Source: Escherichia coli
GTDB taxonomy: Bacteria > Pseudomonadota > Gammaproteobacteria > Enterobacterales > Enterobacteriaceae
DNA: 64,000 bases
Direction: 5' to 3' (one strand)
Assembly (NCBI RefSeq): GCF_041886205.1
Contig: NZ_CP169029.1
The stretch's first letter is position 1. Every line of letters starts with the position of its first letter. Both the position numbers and the translations under genes were made by a program. Shown piece by piece: positions 9,100-39,888 of the stretch. The notes beneath the pieces were generated by a model. That model was not told the DNA's origin, made no database searches, and saw only the letters and a list, made by a program, of their open reading frames with translations.

Positions 9100-9133
9100 A
9101 ACGTGTCCTTACATTCCTTAAATCAATAACAGG

Positions 9134-9936: not shown

Positions 9937-10043
9937 GAACATAAATCCATTTTATCAATAAGATAAGAGGAAGTGTCAGCTGACAAAAGGTATTCTATTT
10001 CATCTTTTGTCAACCATTCACAGCGCAAATATACGCTTTTTTT

Positions 10044-10051
10044 GTGATCAC
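10044..10051. promoter_or_regulatory. palindrome GTGATCAC about 90 bp upstream of rspA; candidate GntR-family (YdfH) operator
   Basis: Perfect 8-bp palindrome of GT-N4-AC type in the rspA promoter region; the GntR-family gene ydfH lies nearby. Confidence 0.25.
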
Positions 10052-10140
10052 TCCGGCTTTTTTCAATCTTCATACTTGTATGGTAGTAGCTCAGATGCGT
10101 AGATTTCATGCATCACGACAAGCGATGCAAGGAATCGAAC

Positions 10141-11355
10141 ATGAAGATCGTAAAGGCTGAAGTTTTTGTTACCTGTCCGGGGCGTAATTTCGTCACATTA
10201 AAAATCACCACTGAGGACGGTATTACGGGCCTTGGGGATGCCACCCTCAATGGACGTGAGCTTTCCGTGGCCTCTTATTTGCAGGATCACCTTTGTCCGC
10301 AGCTTATTGGTCGCGATGCGCACCGTATCGAAGATATCTGGCAGTTTTTCTATAAAGGTGCTTACTGGCGTCGCGGTCCGGTTACGATGTCGGCCATTTC
10401 AGCGGTTGATATGGCGCTGTGGGATATTAAAGCCAAAGCTGCCAACATGCCGCTTTACCAGTTACTCGGCGGCGCGTCTCGTGAAGGGGTGATGGTTTAT
10501 TGCCATACCACCGGTCACAGTATTGATGAAGCTCTGGATGATTATGCCCGTCATCAGGAGCTGGGATTCAAAGCCATCCGCGTGCAGTGCGGAATCCCTG
10601 GTATGAAAACCACCTACGGCATGTCGAAAGGTAAAGGTCTGGCTTATGAACCCGCAACCAAAGGACAGTGGCCGGAAGAGCAGCTGTGGTCGACGGAGAA
10701 ATACCTCGATTTCATGCCGAAATTGTTTGACGCGGTACGTAACAAGTTTGGTTTTAATGAACATTTGCTGCATGACATGCACCATCGCTTAACGCCTATT
10801 GAAGCGGCGCGCTTTGGTAAAAGCATTGAAGATTATCGCATGTTCTGGATGGAAGACCCGACGCCTGCGGAAAACCAGGAATGCTTCCGTCTCATTCGCC
10901 AACATACCGTCACACCCATCGCAGTGGGTGAAGTCTTCAACAGCATCTGGGACTGCAAACAACTGATTGAAGAGCAACTCATCGATTATATCCGCACCAC
11001 GCTGACCCATGCAGGCGGAATTACCGGTATGCGCCGGATTGCCGATTTTGCTTCGCTGTATCAGGTACGTACTGGCTCACACGGTCCTTCCGATTTGTCA
11101 CCAGTCTGCATGGCTGCGGCGCTGCACTTTGATCTGTGGGTCCCCAATTTCGGTGTCCAGGAATACATGGGTTATTCCGAACAAATGCTCGAAGTCTTCC
11201 CGCACAACTGGACTTTCGATAACGGCTATATGCATCCGGGAGACAAACCGGGTCTTGGTATCGAATTCGATGAAAAGCTGGCGGCGAAATATCCCTATGA
11301 ACCTGCTTATCTACCAGTCGCACGTCTGGAAGATGGCACGCTGTGGAACTGGTAA
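10141..11355 (+). CDS. rspA: enolase-superfamily mannonate dehydratase / starvation-sensing protein
   Basis: 404 aa from [24 protein letters not shown]...; RBS AAGGAA upstream. Confidence 0.85.
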
Positions 11356-11366
11356 GGAGTAAGATA

Positions 11367-12386
11367 ATGAAAAGCATATTAATTGAAAAACCGAATCAAC
11401 TGGCGATTGTCGAACGTGAAATACCCACCCCGTCAGCGGGTGAAGTACGAGTAAAAGTGAAACTTGCCGGAATTTGTGGTTCAGATAGCCATATTTATCG
11501 TGGGCATAATCCTTTTGCGAAATATCCGCGCGTCATTGGTCATGAATTCTTTGGCGTCATTGATGCAGTGGGTGAAGGCGTGGAAAGCGCCAGAGTCGGT
11601 GAACGTGTTGCTGTCGATCCGGTGGTCAGCTGTGGGCATTGCTATCCGTGCTCTATAGGTAAACCGAACGTTTGTACGACACTGGCTGTATTAGGTGTGC
11701 ACGCTGACGGTGGTTTCAGTGAATATGCCGTGGTTCCGGCAAAAAATGCGTGGAAAATTCCTGAAGCAGTGGCCGATCAATATGCGGTAATGATCGAACC
11801 TTTTACCATTGCGGCTAACGTAACCGGACATGGTCAACCGACTGAAAATGATACCGTTCTGGTTTATGGTGCCGGTCCAATCGGCCTGACGATCGTTCAG
11901 GTATTAAAAGGCGTCTATAACGTTAAAAATGTGATTGTTGCCGATCGCATTGATGAACGACTGGAAAAAGCGAAAGAGAGCGGGGCTGACTGGGCGATTA
12001 ATAACAGCCAGACACCGCTTGGCGAGATTTTCACTGAAAAAGACATCAAGCCGACATTAATTATCGATGCGGCTTGTCATCCTTCTATCCTGAAAGAGGC
12101 CGTAACGCTGGCTTCTCCAGCGGCACGTATTGTATTGATGGGCTTCTCCAGTGAACCGTCTGAAGTGATTCAGCAAGGAATTACCGGAAAAGAACTCTCT
12201 ATTTTCTCTTCACGCTTAAATGCAAATAAATTCCCGGTCGTTATCGACTGGTTAAGTAAAGGGTTAATTAAACCAGAAAAATTAATTACCCATACGTTTG
12301 ATTTCCAGCATGTTGCTGATGCCATTAGTTTATTTGAACAGGATCAAAAGCATTGCTGCAAAGTCTTACTCACTTTTTCTGAATAA
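11367..12386 (+). CDS. rspB: Zn-dependent alcohol dehydrogenase-family oxidoreductase
   Basis: 339 aa from MKSILIEKPNQL...; GHEFFG and GAGPIG motifs; RBS GGTAAGGAG. Confidence 0.85.
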   Translation: MKSILIEKPNQLAIVEREIPTPSAGEVRVKVKLAGICGSDSHIYRGHNPFAKYPRVIGHEFFGVIDAVGEGVESARVGERVAVDPVVSCGHCYPCSIGKPNVCTTLAVLGVHADGGFSEYAVVPAKNAWKIPEAVADQYAVMIEPFTIAANVTGHGQPTENDTVLVYGAGPIGLTIVQVLKGVYNVKNVIVADRIDERLEKAKESGADWAINNSQTPLGEIFTEKDIKPTLIIDAACHPSILKEAVTLASPAARIVLMGFSSEPSEVIQQGITGKELSIFSSRLNANKFPVVIDWLSKGLIKPEKLITHTFDFQHVADAISLFEQDQKHCCKVLLTFSE

Positions 12387-14140: not shown

Positions 14141-15989
14141 CGATTTCTTTATCTCTTACATCAGACGAGCGCCGGTTGCAGAATACCAGTCACAACCGGC
14201 GACAGTTGAACATTAAGAATCAGCCTGACTCGGGATCAGTTTTTGCCAGATAGCTGAAACGTATTTTGCCTGGTAACGGGCGTCATCAAGTGCATTATGG
14301 CGCTCACCTTCGAATGGAATAGCCGTTCTGGCATCGAAGTCTATGGCTTTCCCCAGCTCAACGATTGTGCGTACATCGCGATCGTTGTAGTAACGCCACG
14401 GGCAGGGGATCCCCTGCCGTTCGTATGAACGGCGCAAAATCGTGTTGTCGAAGTTGGCTCCATTTCCCCAGACATGAACAAAAAATTCACCGGAGTTTTC
14501 GTCGATAAATTCCCGCAATTGTAACAGTGCATCATCTAACGGGATTTCATCGGTCATAATGGCAGATTGCGCTTCGCGTGATTGTTTAAGCCACCATTTA
14601 ATGGTGTCCCGATCAATGACTCCGCCAGCAGTTTCCAGATCGATAGTCTTACTAAATTCCGGTCCCATATCTCCGGTTTGCGGATCGAAAAATATTGCAC
14701 CTATTGAGATAATCGGGGCATCGGGATTTTTTCCCATGGTTTCAAGGTCGATCATCAGATGAATCCCCGCTCTGCTGGTGGATGTGAGATTATGATGACC
14801 GTTTGCCTTAATTAAGGGATCTGACGCCTCGCCAGTTTCACTATCGCTGGCATGATGCTGATTGCCGCCAGTGTTCTCCTTGTGCTGATGCGCAGTGCCT
14901 TCTATTTCCTCCGGATCATTTTCCTGAACTTCAGGCTGATTCTCTCCATCGAATATTTCCTGGTATGTTGCGTCACCCATCACCGCACCACAATCAGGGC
15001 AGTTGCCGCCACCGCTCTGACCGCAGGCGGTGCAGATCTTTTCCGGTTCCTGTTGCACTACTGGTTCAGGTTGTTTCGTTTCTGGCTCGTTTTGTTGCAT
15101 ATTTGGGCTGTTTTGTTCCGCTTTCTGGTCGTTCTGTTCCGTTTCTTGCTGGTTCTGGTTCACAGAATCGCGGGTCTGGATCCCCTTAATCCATTTCGGA
15201 TCATTCGGGTCGCTAATCCCTTCAACAAATTCACCACGTGATACTGCAAGCAGTTCATCGGCGTCAGGCTGGCTGATATTGGCTGCCTGCATAATTTTGT
15301 TTACTTCGTCAGCGGTAACTTTTACTGACCCTGGTTGTGCGGTCGTGTCAGATGCACCAGTATTTTGTTGTGAACCTGAGTATGTACCGTTTTTGCGGGC
15401 GAAATATTCTTCTTTCGTGATTTCAGTAGCCCCAGCAGACAGCGCCTTATCCAGACCAGAAAGTTTATTTGCGCGACCGTATTTTTCGCCATCCTTGTCG
15501 GTGAAGAGGAAGTAGAACGGCCCCTCACGTTCTACAGATGGTTCGACTTCCACTTTGCATTCGGTTTTTTCGTTGTCTGGAATTGCCGTTTCCACTGCAT
15601 CAGTTTCTGGTACTGGCGACGAGAGAGTATCAGTTGCGCTCTGATTTGTTCCTTCATCTTCAAACACGCCCTTTGTAGTCAGGTATTCAGTAATGTATTT
15701 GTTCAGTGCCACAGGGTCTTTGTGAATGTCGATCGGACGTTCACGGACAAGGCCAAAAATAGTCTGGCGGTCGTAGCGAAGGGCATCAGGCTGTTTGCGC
15801 ATTGATGCCGAGATACGCTTCCAGTCTTCGCGGTCGTTGTCGATAACTTCATTTTTTGCCCAGCGATGGATGCTGCCGTCAATGTTTCCGGCATCCACAT
15901 CACCAGGCCAGAGAGCGTAGGCCAGTTCGTCATCCTGAACCGCCCCGGGAATCCTGGAGACTAAACTTCCTGAGAAAGAGGTAAACAGG

Positions 15990-16316
15990 ATGACTAAAAA
16001 TACTCGTTTTTCCCCCGAAGTCCGTCAACGGGCAGTCCGTATGGTTCTGGAAAGTCAGAGCGAATATGACTCACAATGGGCGACAATTTGTTCCATTGCT
16101 CCAAAGATTGGCTGTACGCCGGAGACTCTGCGTGTCTGGGTTCGCCAGCATGAGCGGGATACCGGGGGCGGTGATGGAGGGCTCACCACCGCTGAACGTC
16201 AGCGTCTGAAAGAGCTGGAACGTGAAAATCGTGAACTGCGCCGCAGTAACGATATCCTTCGCCAGGCTTCCGCTTATTTTGCGAAGGCGGAGTTCGACCG
16301 CCTCTGGAAAAAATGA
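15990..16316 (+). CDS. IS3-family transposase OrfA (HTH)
   Basis: 108 aa [21 protein letters not shown]...; leucine-zipper-like C-terminus. Confidence 0.85.
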
Positions 16317-17203
16317 TGCCACTGCTGGATAAGCTGCGTGAGCAGTACGGGGTCGGACCGCTATGCAGCGAACTGCATATTGCCCCGTCAACGTATTACC
16401 ACTGTCAGCAACAGCGACATCATCCGGATAAACGCAGTGCCCGTGCGCAGCGCGATGACTGGCTGAAGAAAGAGATACAGCGCGTATACGATGAAAATCA
16501 CAAGGTATACGGTGTGCGTAAAGTCTGGCGTCAGTTGTTACGGGAAGGTATCAGAGTGGCCAGATGCACTGTGGCACGTCTCATGGCGGTTATGGGACTT
16601 GCCGGTGTTCTCCGGGGTAAAAAGGTCCGTACGACCATCAGCCGGAAAGCCGTTGCCGCAGGCGACCGCGTAAACCGTCAGTTCGTGGCAGAACGACCTG
16701 ACCAGCTGTGGGTGGCTGATTTTACTTACGTCAGCACATGGCGGGGCTTCGTCTATGTGGCGTTCATCATTGATGTGTTTGCCGGATACATCGTGGGGTG
16801 GCGGGTCTCATCGTCCATGGAAACGACATTCGTGCTGGATGCACTGGAGCAGGCGTTATGGGCCCGTCGACCGTCCGGCACGGTCCATCACAGTGATAAA
16901 GGTTCTCAGTATGTATCGCTGGCCTACACACAGCGGCTTAAGGAAGCCGGATTACTGGCATCAACAGGAAGTACAGGCGACTCGTATGACAACGCGATGG
17001 CGGAGAGCATCAATGGTCTTTACAAAGCGGAGGTAATACACCGTAAGAGCTGGAAAAACCGTGCAGAAGTGGAACTGGCCACACTCACGTGGGTGGACTG
17101 GTATAACAATCGACGATTGCTGGAAAGGCTGGGCCATACTCCTCCGGCAGAAGCAGAAAAAGCTTATTATGCTTCCATCGGAAACGATGATCTGGCAGCC
17201 TGA
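16313..17203 (+). CDS. IS3-family transposase OrfB (DDE integrase core)
   Basis: 296 aa with rve-type DDE domain; overlaps orfA in -1 frame. Confidence 0.85.
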
Positions 17204-18017
17204 GTTCACAGATAAAACACTCTCCAGGAAACCCGGGGCGGTTCATCCAGTGTTTTCCATGTCTGCTTGTATTCGCGATGAATGGCAGCAATGACCGGGT
17301 TGATTTTTCCTGTTGAATTTTCAGTGTGCTGTTGATTGGCTCTGGCACGGGCGAGATCAACAACAGACGTGTATTTTCCGGCTTCCTTGCGTTCACCTTC
17401 GCGACGTTTTTTCCAGATGCGCATCTCTGCCTGAATTTCGGGCCATTTGGCACCAGGCTTACATTTATGCTTAACCCACCCGATGGCATGCAGCTTAAGC
17501 TCCGGATACATAGCGTTAACTTCTGGCATTTTCATCAACGCTTCAACGATATGGCCGTCGAATGTTGCCATGTCTTCCTGCAACAATTCCTGTGCGCTAA
17601 TCACCATATCAACAGTGATGTTTTCACATGTGTCGAACTTAACCATGACAGCGTTCTGTACTTCAGGGGCTAGGTTGTCAAAAGTGACGTTCATCGGATC
17701 GGATTCAGTCTCGACCGGGACAAAGGAAGCAGACGCCTCATCCCAGCGGTTTTCCTGCATATATTCAGCATCCCAGGAATCGAGGGCAGGGCGGGGTATA
17801 CCGGGTTTATCCTCGCAAACAAGAAATTTATAAGCGCAGTCCTGAGCAGCCGGATAATGTTCCAGGAATTGCCAGTGAAATTTTGCGCGGGCGCGACGTT
17901 CATCACCGGCTTCAATGGCAGTGGCTACAGTGAGACGAACTTCGCCGTGCGCTTTCGTGTTGTGTGCCTGCTTTTAACCACGTCAGGCGAGGTGGTATCC
18001 TTAAAATCACCACAGTT

Positions 18018-23245: not shown

Positions 23246-23623
23246 ATGCGTGATATTCAGATGGTTCTTGAGCGTTGGGGGGCATGGGCGGCTAATAATC
23301 ATGAAGATGTGACCTGGTCGTCCATTGCCGCCGGTTTTAAGGGATTAATTCCTTCAAAAGTAAGATCTCGTCCGCAATGCTGTGACGATGACGCGATGAT
23401 CATTTGTGAATGTATGGCTCGCCTGAAAAAAAACAACAGCGATTTACATGATTTATTGGTGGACTATTATGTCGGCGGCATGACTTTTATGGCGCTTGCA
23501 CATAAGCATGGGCGATCTGATTGTTGGGTTGGCAGGATGCTCCAGAAAGCTGAGGGCGTAGTGGAGGGCATGCTGATGGTGTTGGATCTCCGATTGGAGA
23601 TGGATGCTGATTGTTCGAAATAA
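23246..23623 (+). CDS. quuQ: late-gene antiterminator Q
   Basis: 125 aa [24 protein letters not shown]...; recognised from memory as near-identical to the Qin antiterminator. Confidence 0.75.
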
Positions 23624-23635
23624 TTAAAGGAAAAG

Positions 23636-23664
23636 TTGCTGTCTGATTTTCATTAGTCTAACAT
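23636..23664 (+). promoter_or_regulatory. candidate late promoter PR' (-35 TTGCTG, 17-bp spacer, -10 TAACAT)
   Basis: Sigma70-like elements just downstream of Q and upstream of a terminator, the classic PR'/qut/tR' arrangement. Confidence 0.4.
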
Positions 23665-23721
23665 TTTAAATGTTGGAATCGCAACGTAGTTATTATCATA
23701 TAACAGCTTGTTTCCTGATTT

Positions 23722-23750
23722 AGCCAGCCTCCCCAAAGGCTGGTTTTTTT
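23722..23750 (+). terminator. Rho-independent terminator (tR'-like)
   Basis: Stem CCAGCC/GGCTGG with 8-nt loop followed by T7. Confidence 0.6.
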
Positions 23751-23778
23751 CTAATAAGTATCATTTCGGGTGGGGATT

Positions 23779-24303
23779 TTATTGTTTAACCCATAATAGT
23801 TCATTGACATTGAATCCCAACTTTTGAGCGGTACGCACATAGTCTGCTTTTACATTATCTGGAATAGTTTGGGTCCTTGCCAGAATCCATAGGTATTCTC
23901 TGTTCGGACCACTGACAAGAGCATACTTATACTCATCATCCAGTTTGATTACATTATAGCCACCATAGAAGGGGCCAAAAAACGAAACTTTCAACGCTGC
24001 AGTTTTAGTATCTCCAGTAAAGTATGCTTTACCTTCGCTCTCGCTCCATTTGTTTTTCGTTGGATCGTATCCACGGTTAAGTACGCGAATCCCTCCGTCG
24101 TTCCGTTTTTCATAAGTAGCGCTGACCTGTTCCAGACCACGTTCGAACCAGTTCTCGAGGCGAGCTATTTCATACCATTTTCCGAGGTAGCGGTTGGCGT
24201 CAAAATTTGTAATCGGCTGCACACCTTTAGGTGGTGTCGGGGCCTTACATGCTATAAGAGTGAAAGAGAGTGCAATGCCAGTCAACACAGGCCATAACTT
24301 CAT
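23779..24303 (-). CDS. bacterial lipocalin (Blc-like outer-membrane lipoprotein)
   Basis: 174 aa; lipobox LIAC; lipocalin motifs NFDANRYLGKWYEIARL and YKYALVSGPNREYLWILAR. Confidence 0.8.
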   Translation of the reverse strand: MKLWPVLTGIALSFTLIACKAPTPPKGVQPITNFDANRYLGKWYEIARLENWFERGLEQVSATYEKRNDGGIRVLNRGYDPTKNKWSESEGKAYFTGDTKTAALKVSFFGPFYGGYNVIKLDDEYKYALVSGPNREYLWILARTQTIPDNVKADYVRTAQKLGFNVNELLWVKQ

Positions 24304-24495
24304 AATAAATCCTGTACTTTTGATAGTTGAGAGTAAGTATGAAAGATAGATGAGTACGACCGATCACTTAAAGAACTTTCCTACTATATTAGGAATAGTC
24401 AATAACAGAAAAATTGTCAGTGATGAAGCCAGAAAGGCAATTTAGTCCGTGCACTACAAAGTTTATGTGTTAATGAATTAGTCAAGGGGGAGGAA

Positions 24496-25455
24496 ATGAT
24501 AAAAAAACCTGTGATTGGGATCAGCGGTTGTTTGGGCGGTTCTGCTGTTCGTTTTGATGGTGGTCACAAAAGAGATGACTTTTTAATGGACAAATTAGTG
24601 GAATGGGTAACATTCAGACCAGTATGTCCGGAAATGGCTATAGGGCTGCCAGTTCCGCGTCCTGCTCTACGACTTGTGCGCTCGAAGCAAGGAAATATAC
24701 GGATGTGTTTCAGCCACGACCAGAATGAGGATGTGACAGAGAGAATGACAGAGTTTAGTCGTTCTTATATGGACAAATTAAAGGATGTATCGGGGTTTGT
24801 GGTTTGTGCTAAATCTCCCAGCTGTGGCATGGAGCGCGTGCGTGTCTATGATGAAAATGGTAATCGAGGTCGTAAAGATGGAGTGGGACTATTTACGAGC
24901 ACTTTGATGGAAAAGTTTTCCTGGCTACCGGTTGAAGAGGATGGGCGATTACATGATCCAGTGCTTCGTGAGAATTTTATTGAAAGAGTTTTTGCTTTGC
25001 ATGAGCTCAATCACCTTTACAAGGAGAAATTATCAAGAAGAGAGTTATTAGCTTTTCATAGTCGTTATAAGCTTCAGTTGTTGGCGCATAGCCAGGCAGG
25101 CTATAAAGATATGGGACCATTTGTGGCTGCAATACACGAGTGGGCGGACCTTGAATCATACTTTGAGGTGTATCGTGATAATCTGATGGCGATTCTCAGA
25201 AAACCAGCATCACGTAAAAATCACACGAATGTGCTGATGCATATACAGGGGTATTTTAGTAATTACTTAAGTACACGCCAGCGTAAAGAGTTGAGCGAGG
25301 TTATACTTAACTATCGCTTTGGCACATTGCCTCTTCTTGCGCCGTTGACTCTGCTGAAGCATTATCTGGGTGAGTATCCTAATGATTACTTGCTTACACA
25401 GAATTACTTCGATCCCTATCCGGAAGAACTGGCTCTAAGACTGATGGTGAATTAA
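24496..25455 (+). CDS. DUF523-DUF1722 fusion protein (TudS/YbgA-like)
   Basis: 319 aa; N-terminal Cys-containing DUF523-like region (GISGCLGGSAVRFDGG, CPE, SPSCG); C-terminal YbgA-like region. Confidence 0.65.
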   Translation: MIKKPVIGISGCLGGSAVRFDGGHKRDDFLMDKLVEWVTFRPVCPEMAIGLPVPRPALRLVRSKQGNIRMCFSHDQNEDVTERMTEFSRSYMDKLKDVSGFVVCAKSPSCGMERVRVYDENGNRGRKDGVGLFTSTLMEKFSWLPVEEDGRLHDPVLRENFIERVFALHELNHLYKEKLSRRELLAFHSRYKLQLLAHSQAGYKDMGPFVAAIHEWADLESYFEVYRDNLMAILRKPASRKNHTNVLMHIQGYFSNYLSTRQRKELSEVILNYRFGTLPLLAPLTLLKHYLGEYPNDYLLTQNYFDPYPEELALRLMVN

Positions 25456-25852
25456 CTGTATGCGATATCATCTGAAAGTGATGAGTTCCTGTATGCAGGA
25501 TATTTACAATCGTAAAAACTACGCTATGATGCTCATAGTGTCAGTTTTTATAAAAATCCTGTTCACGCTAAAGAAAACATTGAGATGCAATTTAATGTTG
25601 GTAAACATACCAACCCCAAAAGATTTTATTCAATCTGTTTTTATATGAAGATATTTCAAGTGAATATAAAGAGCATATAATATTATTATTGCACGCAGCT
25701 ATTATAATATAACAGATTAGTTTAATGATTTGTTTTTTGTGAGTTAAACACATGGTTTTATAGTTGTGATGCAATGAGATTTTCCTTATTGTTGAACTGG
25801 CGAATATTGATTTTCCACCTATACTTACCTGGTGTAACCCCAATGATATCAG

Positions 25853-26575
25853 GTGGATAATATGTCATACATATGTTCTATCATTTTGGTGTTGAACTCG
25901 TTTGGTGTCCGAATTGGTAAAGAAGATATTTTGTTTAAAAAAGGAAATGCTGTCCTCATTGAATACAATTTAAAAGATCTTTTTTCGTCAAATACAGATC
26001 ATCTAATGATCGTAGATGTTGAGGAGAAAACAGTTAATGATTTCTTTAAAAACTACACACTCTCACCTTTTTCTGTAAGAAGGTTTTATCCGTCATACTT
26101 GATAGTAGAATGTGAAGATTTTTCATTGTTAAAGAACTTGGTTGCATGCTTGAATTGTGATAGCAAAACCGTGGATGTAGTTAGAAATCAAATATCACTT
26201 GCATGTCTTGCTGTCTTATCTTCAGAGAAAATAGTGCAAAGTTTTTTGTTCGGAAGTCTTAATAGCTTAGGTTGTAAAGTTAAGGCTATTATTCACTCGG
26301 ATATCTCAGCGTCATGGAGACTTTGTGATATATCTTCAAGATTATATATGAGCGAGAGTTTGTTAAAAAGAAAATTAAAAGACGAAGGATTATCGTTTAG
26401 TAAATTAATTCTTGAAGAACGAATGATGATGGCGCAAAGATTATTGATCTACAGTAACCATACTGTCGGCAAGGTGGCGGGAATATGCGGGTATGACAAT
26501 GCATCATATTTTGTAAGTGTTTTTAGAGGATATTTTGGTGTGCCTCCGCACCAATATTTATCAAGATTTTCTTAG
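25853..26575 (+). CDS. AraC/XylS-family transcriptional regulator (AppY/YdeO/GadX-like)
   Basis: 240 aa; C-terminal AraC HTH (GICGYDNASYFVSVFRGYFGVPPHQY); AT-rich gene and flanks. Confidence 0.75.
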   Translation: MDNMSYICSIILVLNSFGVRIGKEDILFKKGNAVLIEYNLKDLFSSNTDHLMIVDVEEKTVNDFFKNYTLSPFSVRRFYPSYLIVECEDFSLLKNLVACLNCDSKTVDVVRNQISLACLAVLSSEKIVQSFLFGSLNSLGCKVKAIIHSDISASWRLCDISSRLYMSESLLKRKLKDEGLSFSKLILEERMMMAQRLLIYSNHTVGKVAGICGYDNASYFVSVFRGYFGVPPHQYLSRFS

Positions 26576-26765
26576 AAGATATGATGTGATGGCATTTTAT
26601 AAAGTTATTTTTTGAAGTGTAAGATTATACGATATTTTTAGCTACGCCAGAATAATTGCTGGCGTTTTTCTTTTTGAATAGATGTTCGGGCCTTACGCTA
26701 ATGTAACTTCTTTCCTTCTTCGAACCAAACCGTGTACACCATCCGTTATCTGCGGAGGTGAGGCT

Positions 26766-26981
26766 ATGAAATCCATGGATAAGTTAACAACGGGCATCGC
26801 CTACAGCACCTCTGCAGGCAGTGCTGGCTACTGGTTTTTACAGTTGCTCGATAAAGTCACGCCCTCACAGTGGGCGGCAATAGGTGTATTGGGTAGTCTG
26901 GTATTTGGCATGCTGACGTATCTGACAAATCTTTATTTCAAGATTAAAGAAGACAGGCGTAAGGCTGCGAGAGGAGAGTAA
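26766..26981 (+). CDS. essQ: phage holin
   Basis: 71 aa [29 protein letters not shown]...; one TM segment and charged C-terminus; first gene of lysis cassette. Confidence 0.8.
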
Positions 26982-28320: not shown

Positions 28321-28683
28321 GGTAATATTAAATCGGAACATTTACATCGCGGAATGTAAAATTTAAATAAAAAGGACTCTTCCATGAGCCAAAATTCCTG
28401 AAATCTTAAGGGTAAGATAAAAGGTCTTAATCAGAATGACACGTTATTATTAATAAATAAAGCTATTCTTTCATTGCTGTGTTTTTCTTTACAAAAGTAA
28501 TCCTTGCTATGGGTGGTTAATCATGCGTTAATGGTGTTCTGGTTTGTTACAAATTTATCTGAAGCAGTCATTGTTATAATTTTATTATTTGTACCTCTTG
28601 AGATTTCCTTGTTGGTTTTTCTCTCTGATATTTTTTTTCGGACCATTCTGCCCAAGGGCTAATTTCTTCAAAAGGTAATAATT

Positions 28684-28896
28684 ATGTCTAACAAAATGAC
28701 TGGTTTAGTGAAATGGTTTAACCCTGAAAAAGGTTTTGGTTTCATCACGCCGAAAGATGGCAGCAAAGATGTGTTTGTCCATTTCTCAGCAATTCAGAGC
28801 AACGATTTCAAAACATTAACTGAGAATCAGGAAGTTGAATTTGGTATTGAGAACGGACCTAAAGGTCCTGCCGCTGTTCATGTAGTGGCGCTTTGA
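28684..28896 (+). CDS. cspI: cold-shock protein (CspA family)
   Basis: 70 aa [23 protein letters not shown]...; long upstream leader typical of csp genes. Confidence 0.9.
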
Positions 28897-29167
28897 GGTA
28901 GACAATATTACAAACCATATTCACTTTAGATGCCCGTGTTGTCATGGTTCCCAGTATAGAACATCATCTTTTGATGTTTCTGACATGAATCCTTTCGGGG
29001 CAAAATGTATCTTTTGTAAATCAATGATGATTACATTTGATAATATTTCACAATACTTAAATGCCAGCCGTCTGTCGTTGGATTTAAAAAAGTGAAAATG
29101 AAGGCTCCTTCGGGAGTTTTTTTGCTTGGTATCTATTCGATGGATACTCACATACTACGGTAACATC

Positions 29168-31565: not shown

Positions 31566-34043
31566 GTGAATATGGCAGTAAAGATTTCAGGTGTACTGAA
31601 AGACGGCACAGGAAAACCGGTACAGAACTGCACAATCCAGCTGAAAGCAAAACGTAACAGCACCGCGGTGGTGGTGAACACGCTGGCCTCAGAAAATCCG
31701 GATGAAGCCGGGCGTTACAGCATGGACGTTGAGTACGGTCAGTACAGCGTTATTCTGTTGGTGGAAGGATTCCCGCCGTCACATGCCGGGACCATCACCG
31801 TGTATGAAGATTCCCGACCCGGTACGCTGAATGATTTTCTCGGTGCCATGACGGAGGATGATGCCCGTCCGGAGGCTCTGCGACGTTTTGAACTGATGGT
31901 GGAAGAGGTGGCGCGTAACGCGTCCGCAGTGGCACAGAACACGGCAGCCGCGAAGAAGTCAGCCAGTGATGCCAGCACATCTGCCCGTGAGGCGGCAACT
32001 CATACAACCGATGCTGCAGGCTCAGCTCGTGCCGCCAGCACGTCAGCCGGACAGGCTGCATCATCTGCTCAGTCAGCATCTTCCAGCGCAGGAACGGCAT
32101 CAACAAAGGCCAGTGAAGCATCGAAAAGTGCTGCTGCTGCAGAGTCCTCAAAAAGCGCGGCGGCCACCAGTGCCGCTGCGGCGAAAACGTCAGAAACGAA
32201 TGCGGCAGCGTCACAACAATCAGCAGCCACTTCTGCATCCGCCGCGACCACGAAGGCGTCAGAAGCTGCCACCTCAGCCCGGGATGCGGCGGCCTCAAAA
32301 GAGGCGGCAAAATCATCAGAAACGAGCGCAGCCTCGAGCGCCAGTAGTGCAGCCTCCTCGGCAACAGCGGCAGGAAATTCCGCGAAGGCGGCAAAAACGT
32401 CCGAGACGAACGCTAAGTCTTCTGAGACGGCAGCAGCACAGAGTGCCTCCGCAGCAGCAGACTCAAAAACAGCGGCTGCCTCATCTGCCAGCGCCGCGTC
32501 AACAAATGCCGGGCAGGCCTCAGCCAGTGCCACCGCCGCCGGAAAATCGGCAGAAAGTGCTGCATCGTCCGCTTCAACAGCCACAACGAAGGCTGGCGAA
32601 GCCGCTGTACAGGCCAGCGCAGCAGCGAGGTCTGCTTCCGCAGCGAAGACATCCGAGACGAACGCGAAAGCGTCGGAAACCAGCGCAGAATCCTCAAAAA
32701 CGGCTGCCGCATCGTCCGCCAGTTCGGCGGCGTCATCGGCATCATCGGCGTCTGCTTCAAAAGATGAGGCGACCAGACAGGCGTCAGCAGCAAAGGGCAG
32801 CGCCACGACGGCATCCACGAAGGCGACAGAGGCAGCTGGCAGTGCGACGGCGGCAGCTCAGAGCAAAAGTACGGCGGAATCCGCGGCAACGCGCGCCGAG
32901 ACAGCGGCAAAACGGGCAGAGGATATTGCATCCGCCGTGGTGCTTGAGGATGCGAGCACGACGAAAAAGGGGATAACCATGCCACAGGCGAGTTCTGTTG
33001 TTTCAATTACGTTGATTGGTGGTGCGGGATTTAACGTGGGGTCACCTCAACAGGCAGGTATATCTGAACTTGTTTTGCGTGCAGGTAATGGTAATCCGAA
33101 GGGGATTACTGGTGCTTTATGGCAGCGCACATCGACAGGGTTTACAAATTTTGCCTGGGTCAATACATCTGGTGATACTTACGATATTTACGTTGCAATC
33201 GGAAATTATGCGACTGGTGTAAATATTCAATGGGATTATACCAGTAATGCCAGCGTGACGATTCATACGTCACCAGCATATTCTGCTAATAAGCCGGAAG
33301 GGTTAACGGACGGTACAGTTTATTCACTCTATACGCCATCAGAGCAGTTTTATCCGCCTGGCGCACCAATCCCGTGGCCATCAGATACCGTTCCGTCTGG
33401 CTATGCCCTGATGCAGGGGCAGACTTTTGACAAATCTGCATACCCGAAACTTGCAGCCGCTTATCCGTCAGGCGTGATCCCTGATATGCGTGGCTGGACG
33501 ATTAAGGGCAAACCCGCCAGTGGTCGTGCCGTATTGTCTCAGGAACAGGACGGCATTAAATCGCACACCCACAGCGCCAGCGCATCCAGTACGGATTTGG
33601 GGACGAAAAACACATCGTCGTTTGATTACGGAACCAAATCCACGAATAACACCGGGGCGCATACCCATAGTATTAGCGGGACTGCAAATAGTGCCGGTGC
33701 GCACCAACACAAGAGTTCCGGTGCATTTGGTGGCACGAACACGAGCATTTTCCCTAATGGTTATACCGCGATTTCAAATCTAAGCGCGGGGATTATGAGC
33801 ACAACAAGCGGTAGTGGCCAGACTCGTAATGCAGGGAAGACATCATCAGATGGTGCTCATACCCACTCGCTGTCCGGCACTGCTGCAAGCGCAGGCGCAC
33901 ATGCACATACTGTCGGTATTGGTGCTCATACGCACTCCGTTGCGATTGGTTCACATGGACACACCATCACCGTTAACGCTGCTGGTAACGCGGAAAACAC
34001 CGTCAAAAACATCGCATTTAACTATATTGTGAGGCTTGCATAA
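31566..34043 (+). CDS. side tail fibre protein Stf
   Basis: 825 aa; conserved N-terminus [20 protein letters not shown]; long Ala/Ser-rich repeats with KTSETNA units; C-terminal GAHTHS repeats; ATG at 31572 is the likely true start. Confidence 0.85.
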
Positions 34044-34618
34044 TGGCATTCAGAATGAGTGAACAACCACAGACCATAAAAATTTATAATCTGCTGGCCG
34101 GAACTAATGAATTTATTGGTGAAGGTGACGCATATATTCCGCCTCATACAGGTCTGCCAGCAAACAGTACCGATATTGCACCGCCAGATATTCCGGCAGG
34201 CTTCGTGGCTGTTTTCAACAGTGATGAGGCATCGTGGCATCTCGTTGAAGATCATCGGGGAAAAACCGTCTATGACGTGGCTTCCGGCGACGCGTTATTT
34301 ATTTCTGAACTCGGTCCGTTACCGGAAAATGTTACCTGGTTATCGCCGGAAGGGGAGTTTCAGAAGTGGAACGGCACAGCCTGGGTGAAGGATACGGAAG
34401 CAGAAAAACTGTTCCGGATCCGGGAGGCGGAAGAAACAAAAAACAACCTGATGCAGGTAGCCAGTGAGCATATTGCGCCGCTTCAGGATGCTGCAGATCT
34501 GGAAATTGCAACGGAGGAAGAAATCTCGTTGCTGGAAGCATGGAAAAAGTATCGGGTATTGCTGAACCGTGTTGATACGTCAACTGCACAGGATATTGAA
34601 TGGCCAGCACTGCCGTAG
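34043..34618 (+). CDS. tail fibre assembly protein Tfa
   Basis: 191 aa; start overlaps the stf stop; typical Tfa N-terminus ([21 protein letters not shown]). Confidence 0.8.
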
Positions 34619-34715
34619 GGTAAAACATATAAATTCTATAATTAGATGTATCTTTCCATTTACGGCAAGGAAGGGGGCTTGGAACACGTAAAGCATCTCA
34701 CACCGAGATTATTTT

Positions 34716-35306
34716 TTATATGTCAGGTGTCTGAAGTTTTGCTTTGGCTCTTAAAATGGTTTGCCGCGAGGTTTTGAATTCCCGGGCAATGGCACTTATA
34801 CTTACACCTGACTTAATTCGTTCGAATACCACCTGTTTCTGTTCTTCATTTAACACAGGTGGTCGACCAAAACGTTTCCCTGCGCCGCGGGCTCTTACTA
34901 TCCCGGAATGAGTGCGTTCAAGTAAAAGGTCTCGTTCAAATTCAGCGACTGCTGAAATTACTTGCATCATCATTTTTCCTGTTGGACTGGTCAGGTCAAT
35001 GCCACCCAATGCTAAGCAATGCACTCTGATACCTGTTTCGGTCAGTTGTTCCACTGTTTTCCTGATATCCATTGCATTACAACCAAGGCGATCCAGTTTT
35101 GTCACAATCAATTGATCACCACATTTCAGGCGAGCAAGCAACCGGTTAAAACCAGGACGCTCACTGGTTGCTGCTGAGCCGCTAATGTGTTCTTCGATTA
35201 TTTGCTGAGGTTTGATTTTAAAACCTGCACTTTCGATTTCCCGGCGTTGATTTTCGGTGGTCTGATCCAGCGTTGATATCCGACAGTAAGCAAAAATTCG
35301 AGACAT
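34716..35306 (-). CDS. serine recombinase / DNA invertase (Pin/Gin/Hin family)
   Basis: 196 aa [20 protein letters not shown]... with catalytic Ser and C-terminal HTH. Confidence 0.9.
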
Positions 35307-35623
35307 AGTGAGACTCTATTCGAAATTGGTGTTCATATCATAATGCATCTCAGAAAATAATTATGATTATTTTTGTGCATATTTGTATGTACACGTTCGA
35401 AAATAAACGAATGCGTATGCAACCCCGTAATTTTTGGTGAGACCCAAAATCGATTTTGTGAAAAATGGCTTTAACTTGGTTTGTTTTTCGAGTTCCGGGC
35501 GGGCTCAAGGAAGAAGAATAGTGTTGCGTGTTATTTTAACCAGATTTCAAGTTGTTTGGACGTGGAAAAGTGGAGCAAAATGTTGTTAAAGTGGAAAAAT
35601 GATAAAAAAGTAAGTTTATTATA

Positions 35624-35857
35624 TTACATTTTACCATTTAAATTTTGGTTGTCTTTAAGAACTGATATCGCTGTTTGTAATAATTCTTTGTTATCCAGCC
35701 ATGATTTTTTCTTTATGTTTCCTTCAATGTAATCAAGCAATGTTCTGGTATTAATAGGTCTTCCCTGTTTTGCTACTTCCACTACAGCATCCCCTAGGAT
35801 AATTCTTACTTCAGGAAGCTGCGCAGGGAACCACTTAAGGGTGTCTTTTGATTTCAT
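35624..35857 (-). CDS. ydfK: YdfK/YnaE-family small protein
   Basis: 77 aa from MKSKDTLKWFPAQLPEVRIILGD...; last gene before the right junction. Confidence 0.75.
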   Translation of the reverse strand: MKSKDTLKWFPAQLPEVRIILGDAVVEVAKQGRPINTRTLLDYIEGNIKKKSWLDNKELLQTAISVLKDNQNLNGKM

Positions 35858-36642
35858 GAAGATATTCCTTAAAATATTATTGATTTTCATTGCGATATTG
35901 TATGTCTGATTCAGGATATGTTGACTTATACATCGGTTTTGTCTGGGTTATTGGATATGCCAATCCCTAATTTTATTAGGGCATGACTAAAAATGCTGAA
36001 TATGATAAGGAGAGAAGTGATTATCAGTATGCTGTTCATATAGCCTCGAATTAGTAATGTGTTATATATGATATAGTTGACAATTTTTATCTTGGGTGTT
36101 TTTAAAGTTCGTAGATAAACATTGTCGTTTCAGGTATACAGGAATGCTAGCAGGTGGCAGCAAAAATCAGGCGGTTTATGGCGCAAGCTGAAGCGGCAAC
36201 TGCAAACTATCTTATGCAGAGACTCTACACGGATTGGGTTTAAAAGTATACATAGATAACAGTTTTTATCTGAAAAAGAAAAATATCAAGGTGATATAGC
36301 CTATATGCCTTTGATGCGGAGGAATGACTGTGATGGGAGTGATGTATCTGAATAGTTGAAAAAACGCAGACACGCCTTATGCAAGAACGTGCTGCGGTTG
36401 GCTGGTAAATTTTTCGATAGTGTGAGTATTGAATGATTTCCAGCCGTTCTTGATTTTACGCATAAATCCATGAAAAAACTACTTATCTGTTGGGGAGTTT
36501 TTTTGGGGCATATATGGGACAGAAATAGGCCCCAGATAGACACTGAGATCGAACTTAGGATGCTTTTTAAAAAATGCAACTATCTGAAAAAACCTAGAAA
36601 ACGCCAAGGAAACCACAGGATGGGAAAAAACACCTGTGAATT

Positions 36643-37926
36643 ATGGATTTCCAGTTATATTCGCTCGGCGCAGCGTTAGTGTTTCATGAAATATTTTTTC
36701 CTGAATCATCAACGGCAATGGCGTTAATTCTGGCAATGGGAACCTACGGTGCAGGTTATGTGGCGCGTATTGTCGGAGCATTTATTTTCGGCAAAATGGG
36801 CGACAGAATAGGGCGTAAAAAAGTGCTCTTTATTACCATCACCATGATGGGGATCTGTACTACCTTAATTGGTGTGCTGCCGACCTATGCACAAATTGGT
36901 GTTTTTGCACCCATCTTGCTGGTGACGCTGCGTATTATTCAGGGGTTGGGTGCAGGTGCGGAAATTTCCGGTGCCGGTACGATGCTGGCGGAATATGCGC
37001 CAAAAGGTAAGCGCGGAATTATCTCCTCATTTGTGGCTATGGGAACTAACTGCGGAACCTTGAGCGCAACGGCAATCTGGGCCTTTATGTTCTTCATTCT
37101 CAGTAAAGAGGAACTGCTGGCGTGGGGATGGCGTATACCGTTCCTGGCGAGCGTTGTCGTGATGGTCTTTGCTATCTCGTTACGTATGAATCTGAAAGAA
37201 AGCCCGGTCTTTGAGAAGGTTAATGACAGCAACCAACCGACAGCAAAACCTGCACCTGCTGGTAGCATGTTCCAGAGCAAATCCTTCTGGCTGGCAACAG
37301 GGCTGCGTTTTGGTCAGGCGGGTAACTCCGGGTTAATTCAGACTTTCCTTGCAGGCTATTTAGTGCAGACGTTATTGTTTAACAAAGCAATTCCAACAGA
37401 TGCATTGATGATTAGTTCGATTCTCGGCTTTATGACCATTCCGTTCCTTGGTTGGTTATCCGATAAAATTGGTCGCCGGATCCCGTATATTATTATGAAT
37501 ACCTCCGCGATTGTGCTGGCATGGCCAATGCTTTCTATCATCGTAGATAAAAGCTATGCCCCGAGCACCATTATGGTTGCACTGATTGTGATTCATAACT
37601 GTGCGGTGCTGGGATTATTTGCTCTGGAAAACATTACCATGGCAGAAATGTTCGGCTGTAAAAACCGCTTTACCCGGATGGCTATTTCTAAAGAAATTGG
37701 TGGTCTTATCGCTTCCGGTTTTGGTCCTATCCTGGCGGGTATTTTCTGCACCATGACGGAATCCTGGTATCCGATCGCCATTATGATCATGGCATATTCA
37801 GTGATTGGTTTAATCTCTGCGCTGAAAATGCCAGAGGTGAAAGACCGTGATTTAAGTGCGCTGGAAGACGCTGCGGAAGATCAACCGCGTGTTGTAAGAG
37901 CTGCGCAACCTTCCAGAAGTCTGTAA
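36643..37926 (+). pseudogene. ydfJ: 3' portion of ydfJ (MFS transporter), 5'-truncated by the prophage
   Basis: 427 aa MFS protein lacking about the first 30 aa and first TM helix, which are at 12444-12536. Confidence 0.7.
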
Positions 37927-37935
37927 ACCCTCAAT

Positions 37936-37965
37936 CCCTTCTCTTACCGGAGAGGGGATTTTTAT
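37936..37965 (+). terminator. Rho-independent terminator after ydfJ
   Basis: Stem CCCTTCTC/GAGAGGGG with one G-U pair, then ATTTTTATT. Confidence 0.5.
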
Positions 37966-38013
37966 TCATATAACAAAACATGTAGCTTGCATATTTAAAT
38001 TTAAGGAATTGTT

Positions 38014-39474
38014 ATGGGAAATAATTTGTTATCAGCAAAAGCGACGCTCCCTGTTTATGATCGTAATAACCTAGCTCCAAGAATTGTTCATTTAGGCTTT
38101 GGTGCATTTCACCGTGCGCATCAGGGTGTGTATGCCGATATTCTTGCTACGGAACATTTCAGTGACTGGGGATATTATGAGGTCAACTTAATCGGCGGCG
38201 AACAGCAAATTGCCGATTTACAACAGCAAGATAATCTTTATACCGTTGCGGAAATGTCGGCCGATGTGTGGACGGCTCGCGTTGTTGGCGTCGTTAAAAA
38301 AGCCTTGCACGTACAGATAGATGGCTTAGAAACCGTGTTGGCAGCGATGTGTGAACCGCAAATCGCGATTGTCTCTCTGACAATCACCGAAAAAGGGTAT
38401 TTCCACTCTCCGGCGACCGGACAGTTAATGCTCGATCACCCGATGGTAGCTGCCGACGTGCAAAATCCCCACCAGCCGAAAACAGCAACAGGGGTGATTG
38501 TTGAGGCGCTGGCTCGCCGTAAAGCGGCAGGACTTCCCGCATTTACCGTCATGTCATGTGACAACATGCCAGAAAACGGTCATGTTATGCGTGACGTTGT
38601 CACTTCCTACGCACAAGCCGTTGATGTAAAACTGGCACAATGGATCGAAGATAACGTGACTTTCCCATCAACAATGGTGGACCGTATTGTGCCCGCAGTG
38701 ACAGAGGATACGCTGGCGAAAATCGAACAACTTACCGGTGTGCGCGATCCTGCGGGCGTTGCCTGTGAACCTTTCCGCCAGTGGGTAATAGAAGATAACT
38801 TTGTTGCCGGACGTCCGGAATGGGAAAAAGCGGGAGCCGAACTGGTTAGCGATGTGCTGCCTTATGAAGAGATGAAGTTGCGCATGCTCAACGGCAGTCA
38901 TTCATTCCTGGCGTATCTGGGGTATCTTGCAGGATATCAGCACATTAATGACTGTATGGAAGATGAACATTATCGTTATGCGGCGTATGGCTTGATGTTG
39001 CAGGAACAAGCGCCGACGTTGAAAGTGCAGGGCGTTGATTTGCAAGATTACGCTAACCGATTAATTGCACGCTATAGCAACCCGGCGTTACGTCATCGAA
39101 CCTGGCAGATTGCGATGGATGGTAGCCAGAAATTGCCACAGCGGATGTTGGATTCTGTTCGCTGGCATCTGGCGCATGACAGCAAGTTCGATCTGCTGGC
39201 GCTGGGCGTCGCGGGTTGGATGCGTTATGTCAGTGGTGTTGATGAACAGGGAAATCCGATAGAAATCAGTGACCCACTGTTACCTGTTATTCAGAAGGCT
39301 GTACAAAGTAGTGCCGAAGGGAAAGCGCGCGTCCAGTCATTGCTGGCGATTAAGGCGATCTTTGGTGATGATTTGCCAGACAATAGTTTGTTTACTGCAA
39401 GAGTGACGGAAACGTACTTGTCTTTATTAGCGCATGGCGCGAAAGCGACCGTGGCAAAATATTCCGTGAAGTAA
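38014..39474 (+). CDS. ydfI: mannitol-dehydrogenase-family oxidoreductase
   Basis: 486 aa with N-terminal Rossmann motif ([12 protein letters not shown]). Confidence 0.85.
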
Positions 39475-39508
39475 AAAAGCAATGCCGCCATCGGCGGCAT
39501 TCACACGC

Positions 39509-39712
39509 TTAGTTCATGCCGAGACGAATCAGGTCCAGTGGTGCCAGTTTCTCTTCACAACCTTCAACAACTACGGTTTTTCCGCGGCGGATTTGCTCAG
39601 CGGTCAGACCTTCAGTATCAATCGACAGGATCTTGCCAGTGTGACCGGTGCCGCTAACCATAACACGGCTGCCAGTGGTGATTGCGTTACGGTTACGATC
39701 GTAGGTCGTCAT
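39509..39712 (-). CDS. ydfZ: small protein YdfZ
   Basis: 67 aa [28 protein letters not shown]... Confidence 0.7.
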
Positions 39713-39888
39713 AGGTGTTTTCTCCTTTCTGATTTACAGTCGAAGCCCACGTAACGGGCGCAATATAAATACTCCTGTCGAGTGAAATATTTTTTGTTTT
39801 TGATCAAGCTCACATCTTTTTTGATGCATGCATGAGCCATAAGGCGGGGGAAAAGACTCTCACCCCGGATGGGATGAGAGGAAATGAA

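Follow-up and report, generated by a model that had tools for sequence, protein, structure and literature searches.

A lipocalin-rudS pair and an AraC-type regulator gene as cargo between Q and the holin gene of an Escherichia coli prophage

What kind of element is formed by three genes that lie between the antiterminator gene Q and the holin gene of an Escherichia coli prophage, and what could it offer to the bacterium or to the phage? The question is raised by a stretch of 64,000 nucleotides of an E. coli genome (RefSeq assembly GCF_041886205.1, contig NZ_CP169029.1), which as a whole is termed the window here, and in which a lambdoid prophage at the Qin locus carries genes for a Blc-type lipocalin, for a fusion of the domains DUF523 and DUF1722, and for a regulator of the AraC/XylS class. 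A first-pass annotation made from the sequence alone had described a single three-gene island, and had seen in it the most likely place for an undescribed cargo function.

The genes form two units instead, a pair consisting of blc and rudS and a separate araC gene. We regard as probable a widespread and selectively maintained moron cassette made up of these two units (blc-rudS; araC), carried in the Q-holin slot of lambdoid phages and prophages, and having the roles proposed further below. The identities of the genes, the chemistry of RudS (by its near-identity to a tested protein), the conservation of the genes, the selection acting on them and their layout are established. All three open reading frames (ORFs) first annotated are present, although the third likely starts at 25862, and the calls of lipocalin, DUF523-DUF1722 and AraC domains all pass hidden Markov model (HMM) tests. 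The features between Q and the holin gene are as follows.

23246-23623, plus strand: Q antiterminator, 125 amino acids, QuuD-like (PHROG 79 'anti-termination protein Q-like', E=1.1e-49; RefSeq 'antiterminator Q family protein')
23624-23721, plus strand: presumed late promoter/qut region (pR'), with 96% mean column identity over three island alleles
23722-23752, plus strand: tR'-like intrinsic terminator (hairpin scan match 23722-23745), 9-bp stem with 5 GC pairs, followed by a T run
23779-24303, minus strand: blc ORF, Blc-type lipocalin, an outer-membrane lipoprotein of 174 amino acids (ORF list and HMM)
24304-24495, no strand assigned: divergent blc/rudS control region (conservation among phage alleles, homology to chromosomal spacers)
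24496-25455, plus strand: rudS ORF, 319 amino acids (ORF list and Pfam)
25456-25861, plus strand: AT-rich rudS-araC spacer, GC 0.308, carrying a sigma-70-like site
25853-26575, plus strand: araC ORF, with the likely true start at ATG 25862 (RefSeq), giving 237 amino acids (ORF list and Pfam)
26644-26672, plus strand: second intrinsic terminator (hairpin scan match 26644-26665), just upstream of the holin gene
26766-26981, plus strand: holin gene essQ, right edge of the slot, where the lysis cassette begins (RefSeq annotation, identical DNA)

RudS, a tRNA 4-thiouridine desulfidase

The fusion protein contains a 2-thiour_desulf domain (DUF523, PF04463) at residues 7-149 (E=1.2e-39) and a DUF1722 domain (PF08349) at residues 192-309 (E=9.4e-40). 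RudS has been defined as TudS fused to DUF1722 (PMC11417400). The window protein is 91.8% identical over 319 amino acids, i.e. with 26 substitutions, to RudS_vir, which is gp66 of phage 1H12 (YP_009909557), and shows 73-75% identity to the RudS proteins of Citrobacter and Salmonella. The cluster ligands Cys12/44/110 are kept and align with Cys10/43/104 of TudS in PDB 6z92; Cys12/44/110 hold a [4Fe-4S] cluster in RudS_vir and RudS_ST (PMC11417400). The catalytic set is likewise kept, with Glu46 (C44-P-E46), Arg55 (Glu+9) and S107-P-S109-C110. In RudS_KT, mutants of Glu51, Arg60, Ser111 and Ser113 are inactive (PMC11417400, Table 2). The protein is thus identified by sequence as RudS, a [4Fe-4S] enzyme predicted to turn the tRNA 4-thiouridine (s4U) at s4U8 back to uridine, and an early guess that the fusion depends on an Fe-S cluster is borne out by the kept ligands and the family assignment.

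Overexpression in E. coli of six RudS genes, one of them that of RudS_vir, lowers tRNA s4U 4.7- to 26-fold, an effect not seen with stand-alone TudS or YbgA, and the RudS fusions, RudS_vir included, give no TudS-like rescue of a uracil auxotroph on thiouracil (PMC11417400). Since RudS fusions do not salvage thiouracil as TudS does, the 'modified-nucleobase metabolism' that had been suggested for the locus has to be read as tRNA de-modification. Nor is the fusion protein an undescribed cargo, given its 91.8% identity to a published enzyme (PMC11417400).

The resemblance to RudS_vir extends beyond the protein, which has the same TudS plus DUF1722 architecture, 319-amino-acid length, Cys12/44/110 and catalytic Glu, Arg and Ser-x-Ser. 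The neighbours of its gene in phage 1H12 are also those found in the window, i.e. Q, a lipocalin gene, a gene for a 243-amino-acid AraC protein and a holin gene. RudS_vir is however another allele, and it belongs to a phage deposited as a complete genome, whereas the window carries a defective chromosomal prophage. The prophage context of RudS_vir and its neighbouring genes are not discussed in the published work (PMC11417400).

A Salmonella pair, ORF319 (RudS_ST) with 'orf242', was considered as a homologue of rudS plus the regulator gene and dropped, the Salmonella copies examined having neither an AraC nor a lipocalin gene beside rudS.

The lipocalin

E. coli Blc is a lipid-binding outer-membrane lipoprotein. 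The window lipocalin scores 312.6 bits on the NCBIfam Blc subfamily model NF007786 (cut-off 267), matches Pfam Lipocalin_2 (PF08212) at E=8.6e-43, and aligns with the solved Blc structures PDB 3mbt/1qwd at E about 1e-66 (best 8e-67). A lipoprotein signal can be read from the sequence, MKLWPVLTGIALSFTLIAC19, with the lipobox L-I-A-C19 and Lys at +2.

Fold family (Lipocalin_2), lipoprotein signal and size are common to the window protein and the chromosomal Blc of E. coli (b4149), but the two are members of different paralogue clades. Identity to the ampC-linked K-12 Blc is 58.6% only, versus 68-80% to lipocalins encoded beside chromosomal rudS genes. By these identities the window Blc belongs to the rudS-linked paralogue clade, and it fails as an orthologue of the ampC-linked E. 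coli blc product.

Origin of the blc-rudS pair

Many Enterobacterales encode RudS relatives, at 66-76% identity, in the chromosome. A long operon ends with rudS in Citrobacter, Klebsiella and Pectobacterium, its order being SnoaL_2, SDR, amine oxidase, DUF1365, cfa-like methyltransferase, DUF2878, a 175-amino-acid protein, DUF3833, rudS, and in Klebsiella and Pectobacterium a gene for a MerR regulator with MlrA domains stands ahead of it. A Serratia contig displays the order lipocalin (minus strand), MlrA-like gene (plus) and rudS (plus), the lipocalin being 75.3% identical to the window Blc and RudS 74.0% identical to the window RudS. Over 41 species loci, a lipocalin gene of the rudS-linked clade (68-80%) is found divergent from and upstream of rudS at 21; an MlrA-like gene lies between the two at 18 of these 21 and not at the other three. 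The long operon is present at 15 of the 41 loci, and in Raoultella terrigena the elements stand in one row of lipocalin, regulator, operon and rudS.

The phage pair therefore has chromosomal counterparts in Enterobacter, Leclercia, Lelliottia, Serratia and Raoultella, which have the same divergent arrangement, with the lipocalin at 68-80% and RudS at 66-75% identity. They differ from the phage pair in having an MlrA/BluR-type MerR gene and an operator, in having no AraC gene, and in lying outside a Q-holin slot. In Citrobacter sedlakii, blc and rudS are adjacent as in the phage, with a gap of 187 bp versus 192 bp, thus about 190 bp in both. On the blc side, the phage spacer aligns over its first ~125 nt with the blc/mlrA-like spacers of nine chromosomal loci, and a conserved spacer box, which is TTCGTAGTATATTGAGA at the chromosomal loci, reads TTCCTACTATATTAGGA in the phage copy.

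An operator-like motif, AAAACTTG(G/T)ACAAAT-N9-TTGTGTAA(G)TTTTA, precedes chromosomal rudS or its operon in four genera (L025 1030-1075, L027 1022-1067, L026 6708-6753 and L014 26-71), and a gene for an MlrA paralogue is beside it in three of the four contigs; the Citrobacter flank examined has none. The motif resembles the published MlrA box, AAAGTTGTACA(12N)TGCACAATTTT (PMC3509220). Nothing within four mismatches of TTG(G/T)ACAAAT-N9-TTGTGTAA is found in the phage blc-rudS spacer. A look-alike in that spacer, AAAAATTGTCA-N18-CAATTTAGT at 24417-24455, is kept in three alleles and was not convincing as an MlrA-type operator.

The MlrA-like regulators score 208-214 bits on the MlrA model and are taken as paralogues because the cut-off is 417. 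The MlrA family includes BluR, the repressor of the E. coli blue-light pathway, and MerR/LitR-type light control of rudS has been noted (PMC11417400); for these two reasons the ancestral locus was plausibly light-responsive. The lipocalin gene, the cfa-like lipid operon and rudS could be parts of one light-responsive regulon. As judged from the sequence comparisons, the phage probably acquired blc and rudS together, as one block, from an enterobacterial locus of this kind, without the regulator gene and the operator.

Two minor points concern the chromosomal loci. Neither the 175-amino-acid protein nor the DUF3833 protein encoded upstream of Citrobacter rudS appears to be a diverged Blc, as there is no BLASTP similarity and no NCBIfam match. 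In Enterobacter cloacae (L039, ~5490-5900) and Huaxiibacter (L057), an ORF for a secreted protein of ~135 amino acids lies between the regulator gene and the rudS operator.

The AraC/XylS regulator

The third protein has an HTH_18 domain at residues 161-237 (E=7e-16) and two HTH_AraC matches in Pfam, and it aligns with the DNA-binding domain of GadX (PDB 3mkl) at E=4e-21. End-to-end BLASTP identities are 47.7% to ECs_0287 of strain Sakai, 33.5% to GadW, 29.8% to AppY and 29.6% to YdeO; identity to GadX is 41% and covers the DNA-binding domain only. We infer that ECs_0287 is PatE, based on its position and on review text, since it is the sole regulator at the right end of Sp1/OI-8. Full-length homology and similar size place the window protein, by sequence, in the GadW/AppY/YdeO/PatE class of AraC/XylS regulators, and the N-terminal consensus of that class, M-x-x-x-C-S-V-I, is approximated by M-S-Y-I-C-S-I-I in the window.

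The class also shares a low GC content, 0.317 in appY and 0.352 in the presumed patE gene. In the window, GC is 0.333 in araC and 0.308 in the spacer upstream of it, compared with 0.43-0.44 in blc and rudS and 0.458 in the prophage; sliding windows over 25400-26599 give 0.295-0.347. The location differs, however, as the genes for PatE and for AppY (DLP12) stand at the tail-fibre/attachment end of their prophages and the window araC is in the Q-holin slot. H-NS silencing had been proposed for this segment with AT content as its sole support, and it is not upheld by a motif analysis, the high-affinity H-NS motif being without enrichment (23 matches versus 21 expected in the window, one of them in the AT-rich segment).

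Several findings set araC apart as an addition separate from blc-rudS, in agreement with the foreign origin first proposed for the AT-rich regulator gene. These are the GC content, the lack of an AraC homologue at chromosomal rudS loci (0/41), a recombination break in the rudS-araC spacer at which megablast identity changes, and the existence of relatives that occupy the slot without blc or rudS. Two of these, at 59% and 50% identity, are encoded alone between two other Q families and the holin gene (L111 4045-5735; L112 4056-6134), and a third, at 38%, lies between Q and the tRNA-stx2 block of Stx2k phage (L007 1485-4214). As the relatives follow three kinds of Q and precede a holin gene or stx2, an AraC gene in the late-gene slot appears to be a recurrent theme of lambdoid prophages.

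The family itself is narrow and restricted to E. coli prophages. Its alleles fall into three classes, 99-100%, 84-87% and 76%, and araC diverges faster than blc and rudS. The protein appears to be neither PsrA nor PsrB, from which it is set apart without direct sequence comparison: the indirect evidence is that no O157 genome occurs among 60 evenly spaced island matches and that no large regulator cluster lies between 50% and 75% identity.

Spread, alleles and selection

The extent of the cassette was determined by megablast of window positions 23600-26700 against 5,426 complete E. coli genomes. A match is present in 1,153 of these and at least 80% of the query is covered in 882, i.e. in about 16-21% of the genomes. 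Identity is at least 99% in 414 genomes and 90-95% in 619. The cassette is also found in 12 phage records, including 1H12 and its relatives and IdasGreatGrand (1H12 and IdasGreatGrand being deposited as complete genomes), and in 36 IMG/VR contigs. The backbones are lambda-like, DLP12-like and Qin-like. The order Q, blc (minus strand), rudS, araC, holin is fixed wherever the IMG/VR flanks reach, and 1H12, its relatives and IdasGreatGrand have the 243-amino-acid form of the AraC protein. The first-pass annotation had named as its refutation the finding of the same three genes, in the same position, as ordinary late genes of many phages. The recurrence is real, in 12 phage records, 36 contigs and about one fifth of complete genomes, but the genes are cargo and not late structural genes.

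Three allele classes are seen, with Blc/RudS/AraC identities to the window of about 100% each, ~97/98/85% and 96/92/76%. The three proteins each fall into a PHROGs family (2809, 3275 and 1450), all labelled 'unknown function'. Ratios of nonsynonymous to synonymous divergence (dN/dS) between alleles are 0.07-0.23 (blc), 0.11-0.24 (rudS) and 0.21-0.25 (araC), and therefore all three genes are under purifying selection.

Insertion sequences (IS) and deletions are also frequent. IS2, IS3, IS1 and IS5 are in or beside the cassette in a notable share of genomes, where the lipocalin gene is split, araC replaced or rudS deleted. The slot between Q and the holin gene may be an insertion hot spot.

A truncated copy is present in derivatives of E. 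coli B. BL21 and C41(DE3) have Q, an intact lipocalin gene and the first 147 nt of rudS, cut by IS3 (NZ_CP010585.1, locus L024, 4397-4543). BL21(DE3) was the host in which s4U loss was measured (PMC11417400); its background is RudS-null, yet it is not naive for the cassette.

Further prophage-associated rudS genes

In a second lambdoid lineage (IMG/VR L103-L108, rudS at 5001-5957; L105 examined), rudS stands within the nin region and upstream of three genes, those for rusA, a ydfU-like protein and a 114-amino-acid Q; neither a lipocalin gene nor an AraC gene accompanies it. The encoded protein shares 72% identity with the window RudS, and the gene is 95% identical in DNA sequence to the chromosomal copy of Salmonella Derby. 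It looks like an independent capture. Capture of rudS on more than one occasion argues that temperate phages, or their lysogens, profit from RudS itself.

Outside E. coli, C. braakii ATCC 51113 has two rudS copies, one ending the long operon and one alone (L029, L030), and Citrobacter sp. MGH106 has a lone rudS 1.5 kb upstream of a ydfU-like phage gene (L041 8445-9437). This suggests that there are further prophage-borne rudS genes in other species.

Layout and transcription signals

The cassette lies in the slot in which cspF/cspB are found in K-12 Qin and stx2 in Stx2k phage, and the comparison with these loci, made when the locus was first annotated, holds. Like stxAB and cspF/cspB, the cassette follows Q and a tR'-type terminator and precedes the holin gene, and so should be exposed to Q-dependent read-through. 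The gene nmpC of DLP12 we take to be another occupant. The cassette differs from the stx and csp cargo in its genes, in having blc antisense to the late transcript and in having an extra terminator before the holin gene. In other prophages the same slot is filled by araC alone or by stx. The slot cargo is dispensable, in that K-12 Qin shares the flanks (ydfU, and essQ onward) and has the Q-plus-cargo segment swapped. Q is 96-99% identical at all 30 of the E. coli-type IMG/VR loci (of 36) whose flank extends to Q, and K-12 Qin has a different Q gene, ydfT, at this place; Q thus moves together with the island as one module.

The tR'-like hairpin and T run are the same in the window and in IdasGreatGrand, with one additional T in 1H12, and the second terminator is kept in three alleles save for one loop base. 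In the pR'/qut region, a promoter scan shows weak sigma-70-like matches only. The blc-rudS spacer is 96% kept among phage alleles, above flanking synonymous sites. In the rudS-araC spacer, conservation over the three alleles is confined to a sigma-70-like patch and the last ~80 nt before araC, the remainder being indel-rich. The patch contains TTTACA-N16-TATGAT at 25503-25530, which has 10/12 consensus matches in the promoter scan and, on sequence grounds, is a candidate araC promoter; a weak hairpin (25521-25541) overlaps it.

Two small ORFs in the AT-rich spacer, at 25460-25648 (plus strand) and 25592-25843 (minus strand), are broken by indels between alleles and were rejected as genes. A search of the island with Rfam gives a sub-threshold match to the terminator hairpin only, and there are no tRNA genes in the island.

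A proposed mode of action

The physiological roles, in lysogeny or upon induction, we infer as follows. The phage pair would have lost the MlrA-like regulator and the rudS operator, while retaining some of the former divergent promoter region. Transcripts from the late promoter would, in a lysogen, end at the tR'-like terminator, and blc, rudS and araC would rely on promoters of their own, as predicted. Upon induction, Q-modified RNA polymerase would pass both terminators, so that rudS and araC would be co-transcribed with the lysis genes in the manner of stx; the read-through would transcribe blc antisense. RudS may then lower s4U8, which is sensitive to ultraviolet A (UVA), so that s4U8-C13 cross-links would be fewer and the stringent growth delay would be shortened. 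Blc would accompany RudS as it does at the chromosomal locus. The regulator may act on host stress and acid-resistance promoters, as PatE and AppY do; PatE (Z0321, presumed to be ECs_0287), PsrB and AppY act on the acid-fitness network, and this is the sole basis on which host stress targets are predicted.

A bolder version of the proposal sees a portable and re-wired light/UVA-response locus, in which the light-responsive regulator was dropped, the pair became Q-dependent, and an AraC gene of the acid/stationary-phase type came to lie beside it. We consider this version doubtful. If it were true, induction by sunlight or by the SOS response, or lysogeny itself, would shut off the stringent growth delay along with the tRNA photosensor, phages would confer tolerance to UVA on about one fifth of E. 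coli strains, and rudS having been captured independently in the nin region would count as convergent evidence.

We note that a number of observations weigh against the moron cassette with the proposed roles. Promoters, qut site and read-through are predicted at the level of consensus matches, and a consensus-level scan finds 13 promoter-like sites versus 11.4 in shuffled sequence, which is no excess. RudS_vir was the least active of the RudS proteins tested despite good expression, the test was one of overexpression only, and rescue of the UVA growth delay was demonstrated with the Pseudomonas enzyme and not with the phage RudS (PMC11417400). The regulator is under every NCBIfam equivalog cut-off (best YdeO, 114 bits versus 348; GadX, 90 versus 500), and orthology to any named regulator is not upheld; with 48% identity to the presumed PatE and at most ~34% to GadW, AppY and YdeO, its targets are a guess. 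Interruption by IS elements, together with the truncation of rudS in BL21(DE3) and C41, which keep 49 codons of it beside IS3, indicates that loss of the cassette is tolerated. In addition, no head or tail genes are found in the gene content of the whole window prophage, which is therefore defective. As it makes no particles, a benefit through phage production is excluded here, and a host-side benefit alone could apply.

Alternative explanations

The defective state of the prophage bears directly on the alternative that survives best, namely that RudS serves the phage. The late transcript would couple induction (by UV or SOS) to erasure of the photosensor and so sustain late translation, or RudS might take part in a tRNA takeover or in counter-defence. 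The position of rudS would fit, since at every E. coli-type locus the gene lies between Q/tR' and the holin gene, on the strand of the late transcript, and so would its retention in phages deposited as complete genomes and its capture in the nin region upstream of Q in the absence of blc and araC. However, copies of at least 99% identity are present in 414 genomes, and the two such copies examined lie in a defective Qin-locus remnant, which makes no particles; moreover, rudS has retained a conserved upstream region of its own. As for counter-defence, none of the three cassette proteins matches a PADLOC defence family at E<=0.001, and a link between s4U and defence against phages is not reported in the papers searched. 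A service to the phage is a serious possibility, yet one clearly less probable than the maintained moron cassette.

A second alternative concerns the regulator, which instead of acting on host regulons might be a local one that replaces the lost MlrA-like protein at the blc and rudS promoters. The loss of the MlrA-like gene and operator from the phage copy and the gain of a regulator gene next door would be readily explained in this way, as would a blc-rudS spacer more conserved than synonymous sites and the co-variation of island and AraC alleles in three classes. Yet the spacer is still 96% identical when AraC identity is down to 76%, no repeated motif common to the spacer and the araC upstream region was found, relatives of the regulator occupy the same slot without blc or rudS, and the characterized relatives PatE and AppY act on host genes. 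We consider local control unlikely.

Less likely still is a neutral, hitch-hiking cargo that decays in cryptic prophages and benefits neither host nor phage. Decay would produce deletions and insertions of IS2, IS3 and IS1 as frequent as those seen (lipocalin gene split, rudS truncated in BL21/C41, IS1 in place of araC), and a prophage as defective as that of the window. But dN/dS values of 0.07-0.25 over alleles with synonymous divergence (dS) of 0.05-0.6, intact ORFs in a fixed order in 882 genomes as well as in phages deposited as complete genomes, every catalytic RudS residue being kept, and an independent rudS capture in a second phage lineage all speak against it.

A role for the fusion protein in salvage of free bases or nucleotides, after the manner of stand-alone TudS (a thiouracil or s4UMP desulfidase), might be suggested by its N-terminal domain, which belongs to the TudS fold family and shares its cluster ligands. 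Such a role is highly improbable, as all RudS fusions lowered tRNA s4U, which TudS and YbgA did not, and failed in the thiouracil growth test (PMC11417400).

Implications

Much of the cassette is of an already known kind. RudS_vir has been published, and both cargo in the Q-S slot and AraC regulators of prophages are well-known. The searchable literature has no mention of the three-gene arrangement, of how frequent it is in E. coli, or of the linkage of the lipocalin gene to rudS with the chromosomal origin of the pair. The finding, although real, is mostly ordinary and does not overturn current understanding.

One published statement can nevertheless be qualified. E. coli was said to lack RudS (PMC11417400), which is true for K-12 (ybgA only) and for BL21 (a stump of 49 codons) but false for ~16-21% of complete genomes. 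If the roles proposed for the moron cassette are correct, a common cassette alters tRNA s4U8, which sets the near-UV growth delay and stringent response of E. coli, and one more prophage AraC regulator is added to the crowded GadX/AppY/PatE network. There would then be differences between strains in tolerance to light or acid that are invisible in the core genome. The linkage of lipocalin genes to rudS across genera suggests that Blc-type lipocalins share in the light/photo-oxidative stress response of RudS, which is a lead for a vaguely understood family.

The prophage and its surroundings

The E. coli chromosome occupies positions 1-11972 (left) and 33403-42729 (right) of the window, with 99.6% identity to strain MIN9. 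The left flank runs from ynfH to rspA/B, and the right one from a phage tail-fibre remnant through pinQ and ydfK into ydfJ and onward. Between them lies the lambdoid prophage of the Qin locus, which is ~24 kb in length. Ahead of the cassette it has an integrase gene, a gene for a recE-like exonuclease that an IS has split, genes for a CII-like protein, a replication initiator and a Ren-like protein, and ydfU and Q; after Q come the cassette, the lysis cassette, cspI and the tail-fibre remnant. Homology to K-12 Qin is seen at intQ, at ydfU and from essQ onward (window position 26737 on), but the two differ in the Q gene and in all of the Q-to-holin interval.

The recE-like exonuclease gene is in two pieces on the minus strand, 17206-17760 and 14213-15898, with a transposase gene (16313-17203, PHROG 157) inserted, a further sign of a defective prophage. 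Downstream of the lysis cassette there is a full-length thermoregulator 5' untranslated region (UTR) of the cspA type at 28538-28923 on the plus strand (Rfam RF01766, 112.8 bits versus a gathering score of 78), which leads into a cspI-like cold-shock gene at 28684-28896.

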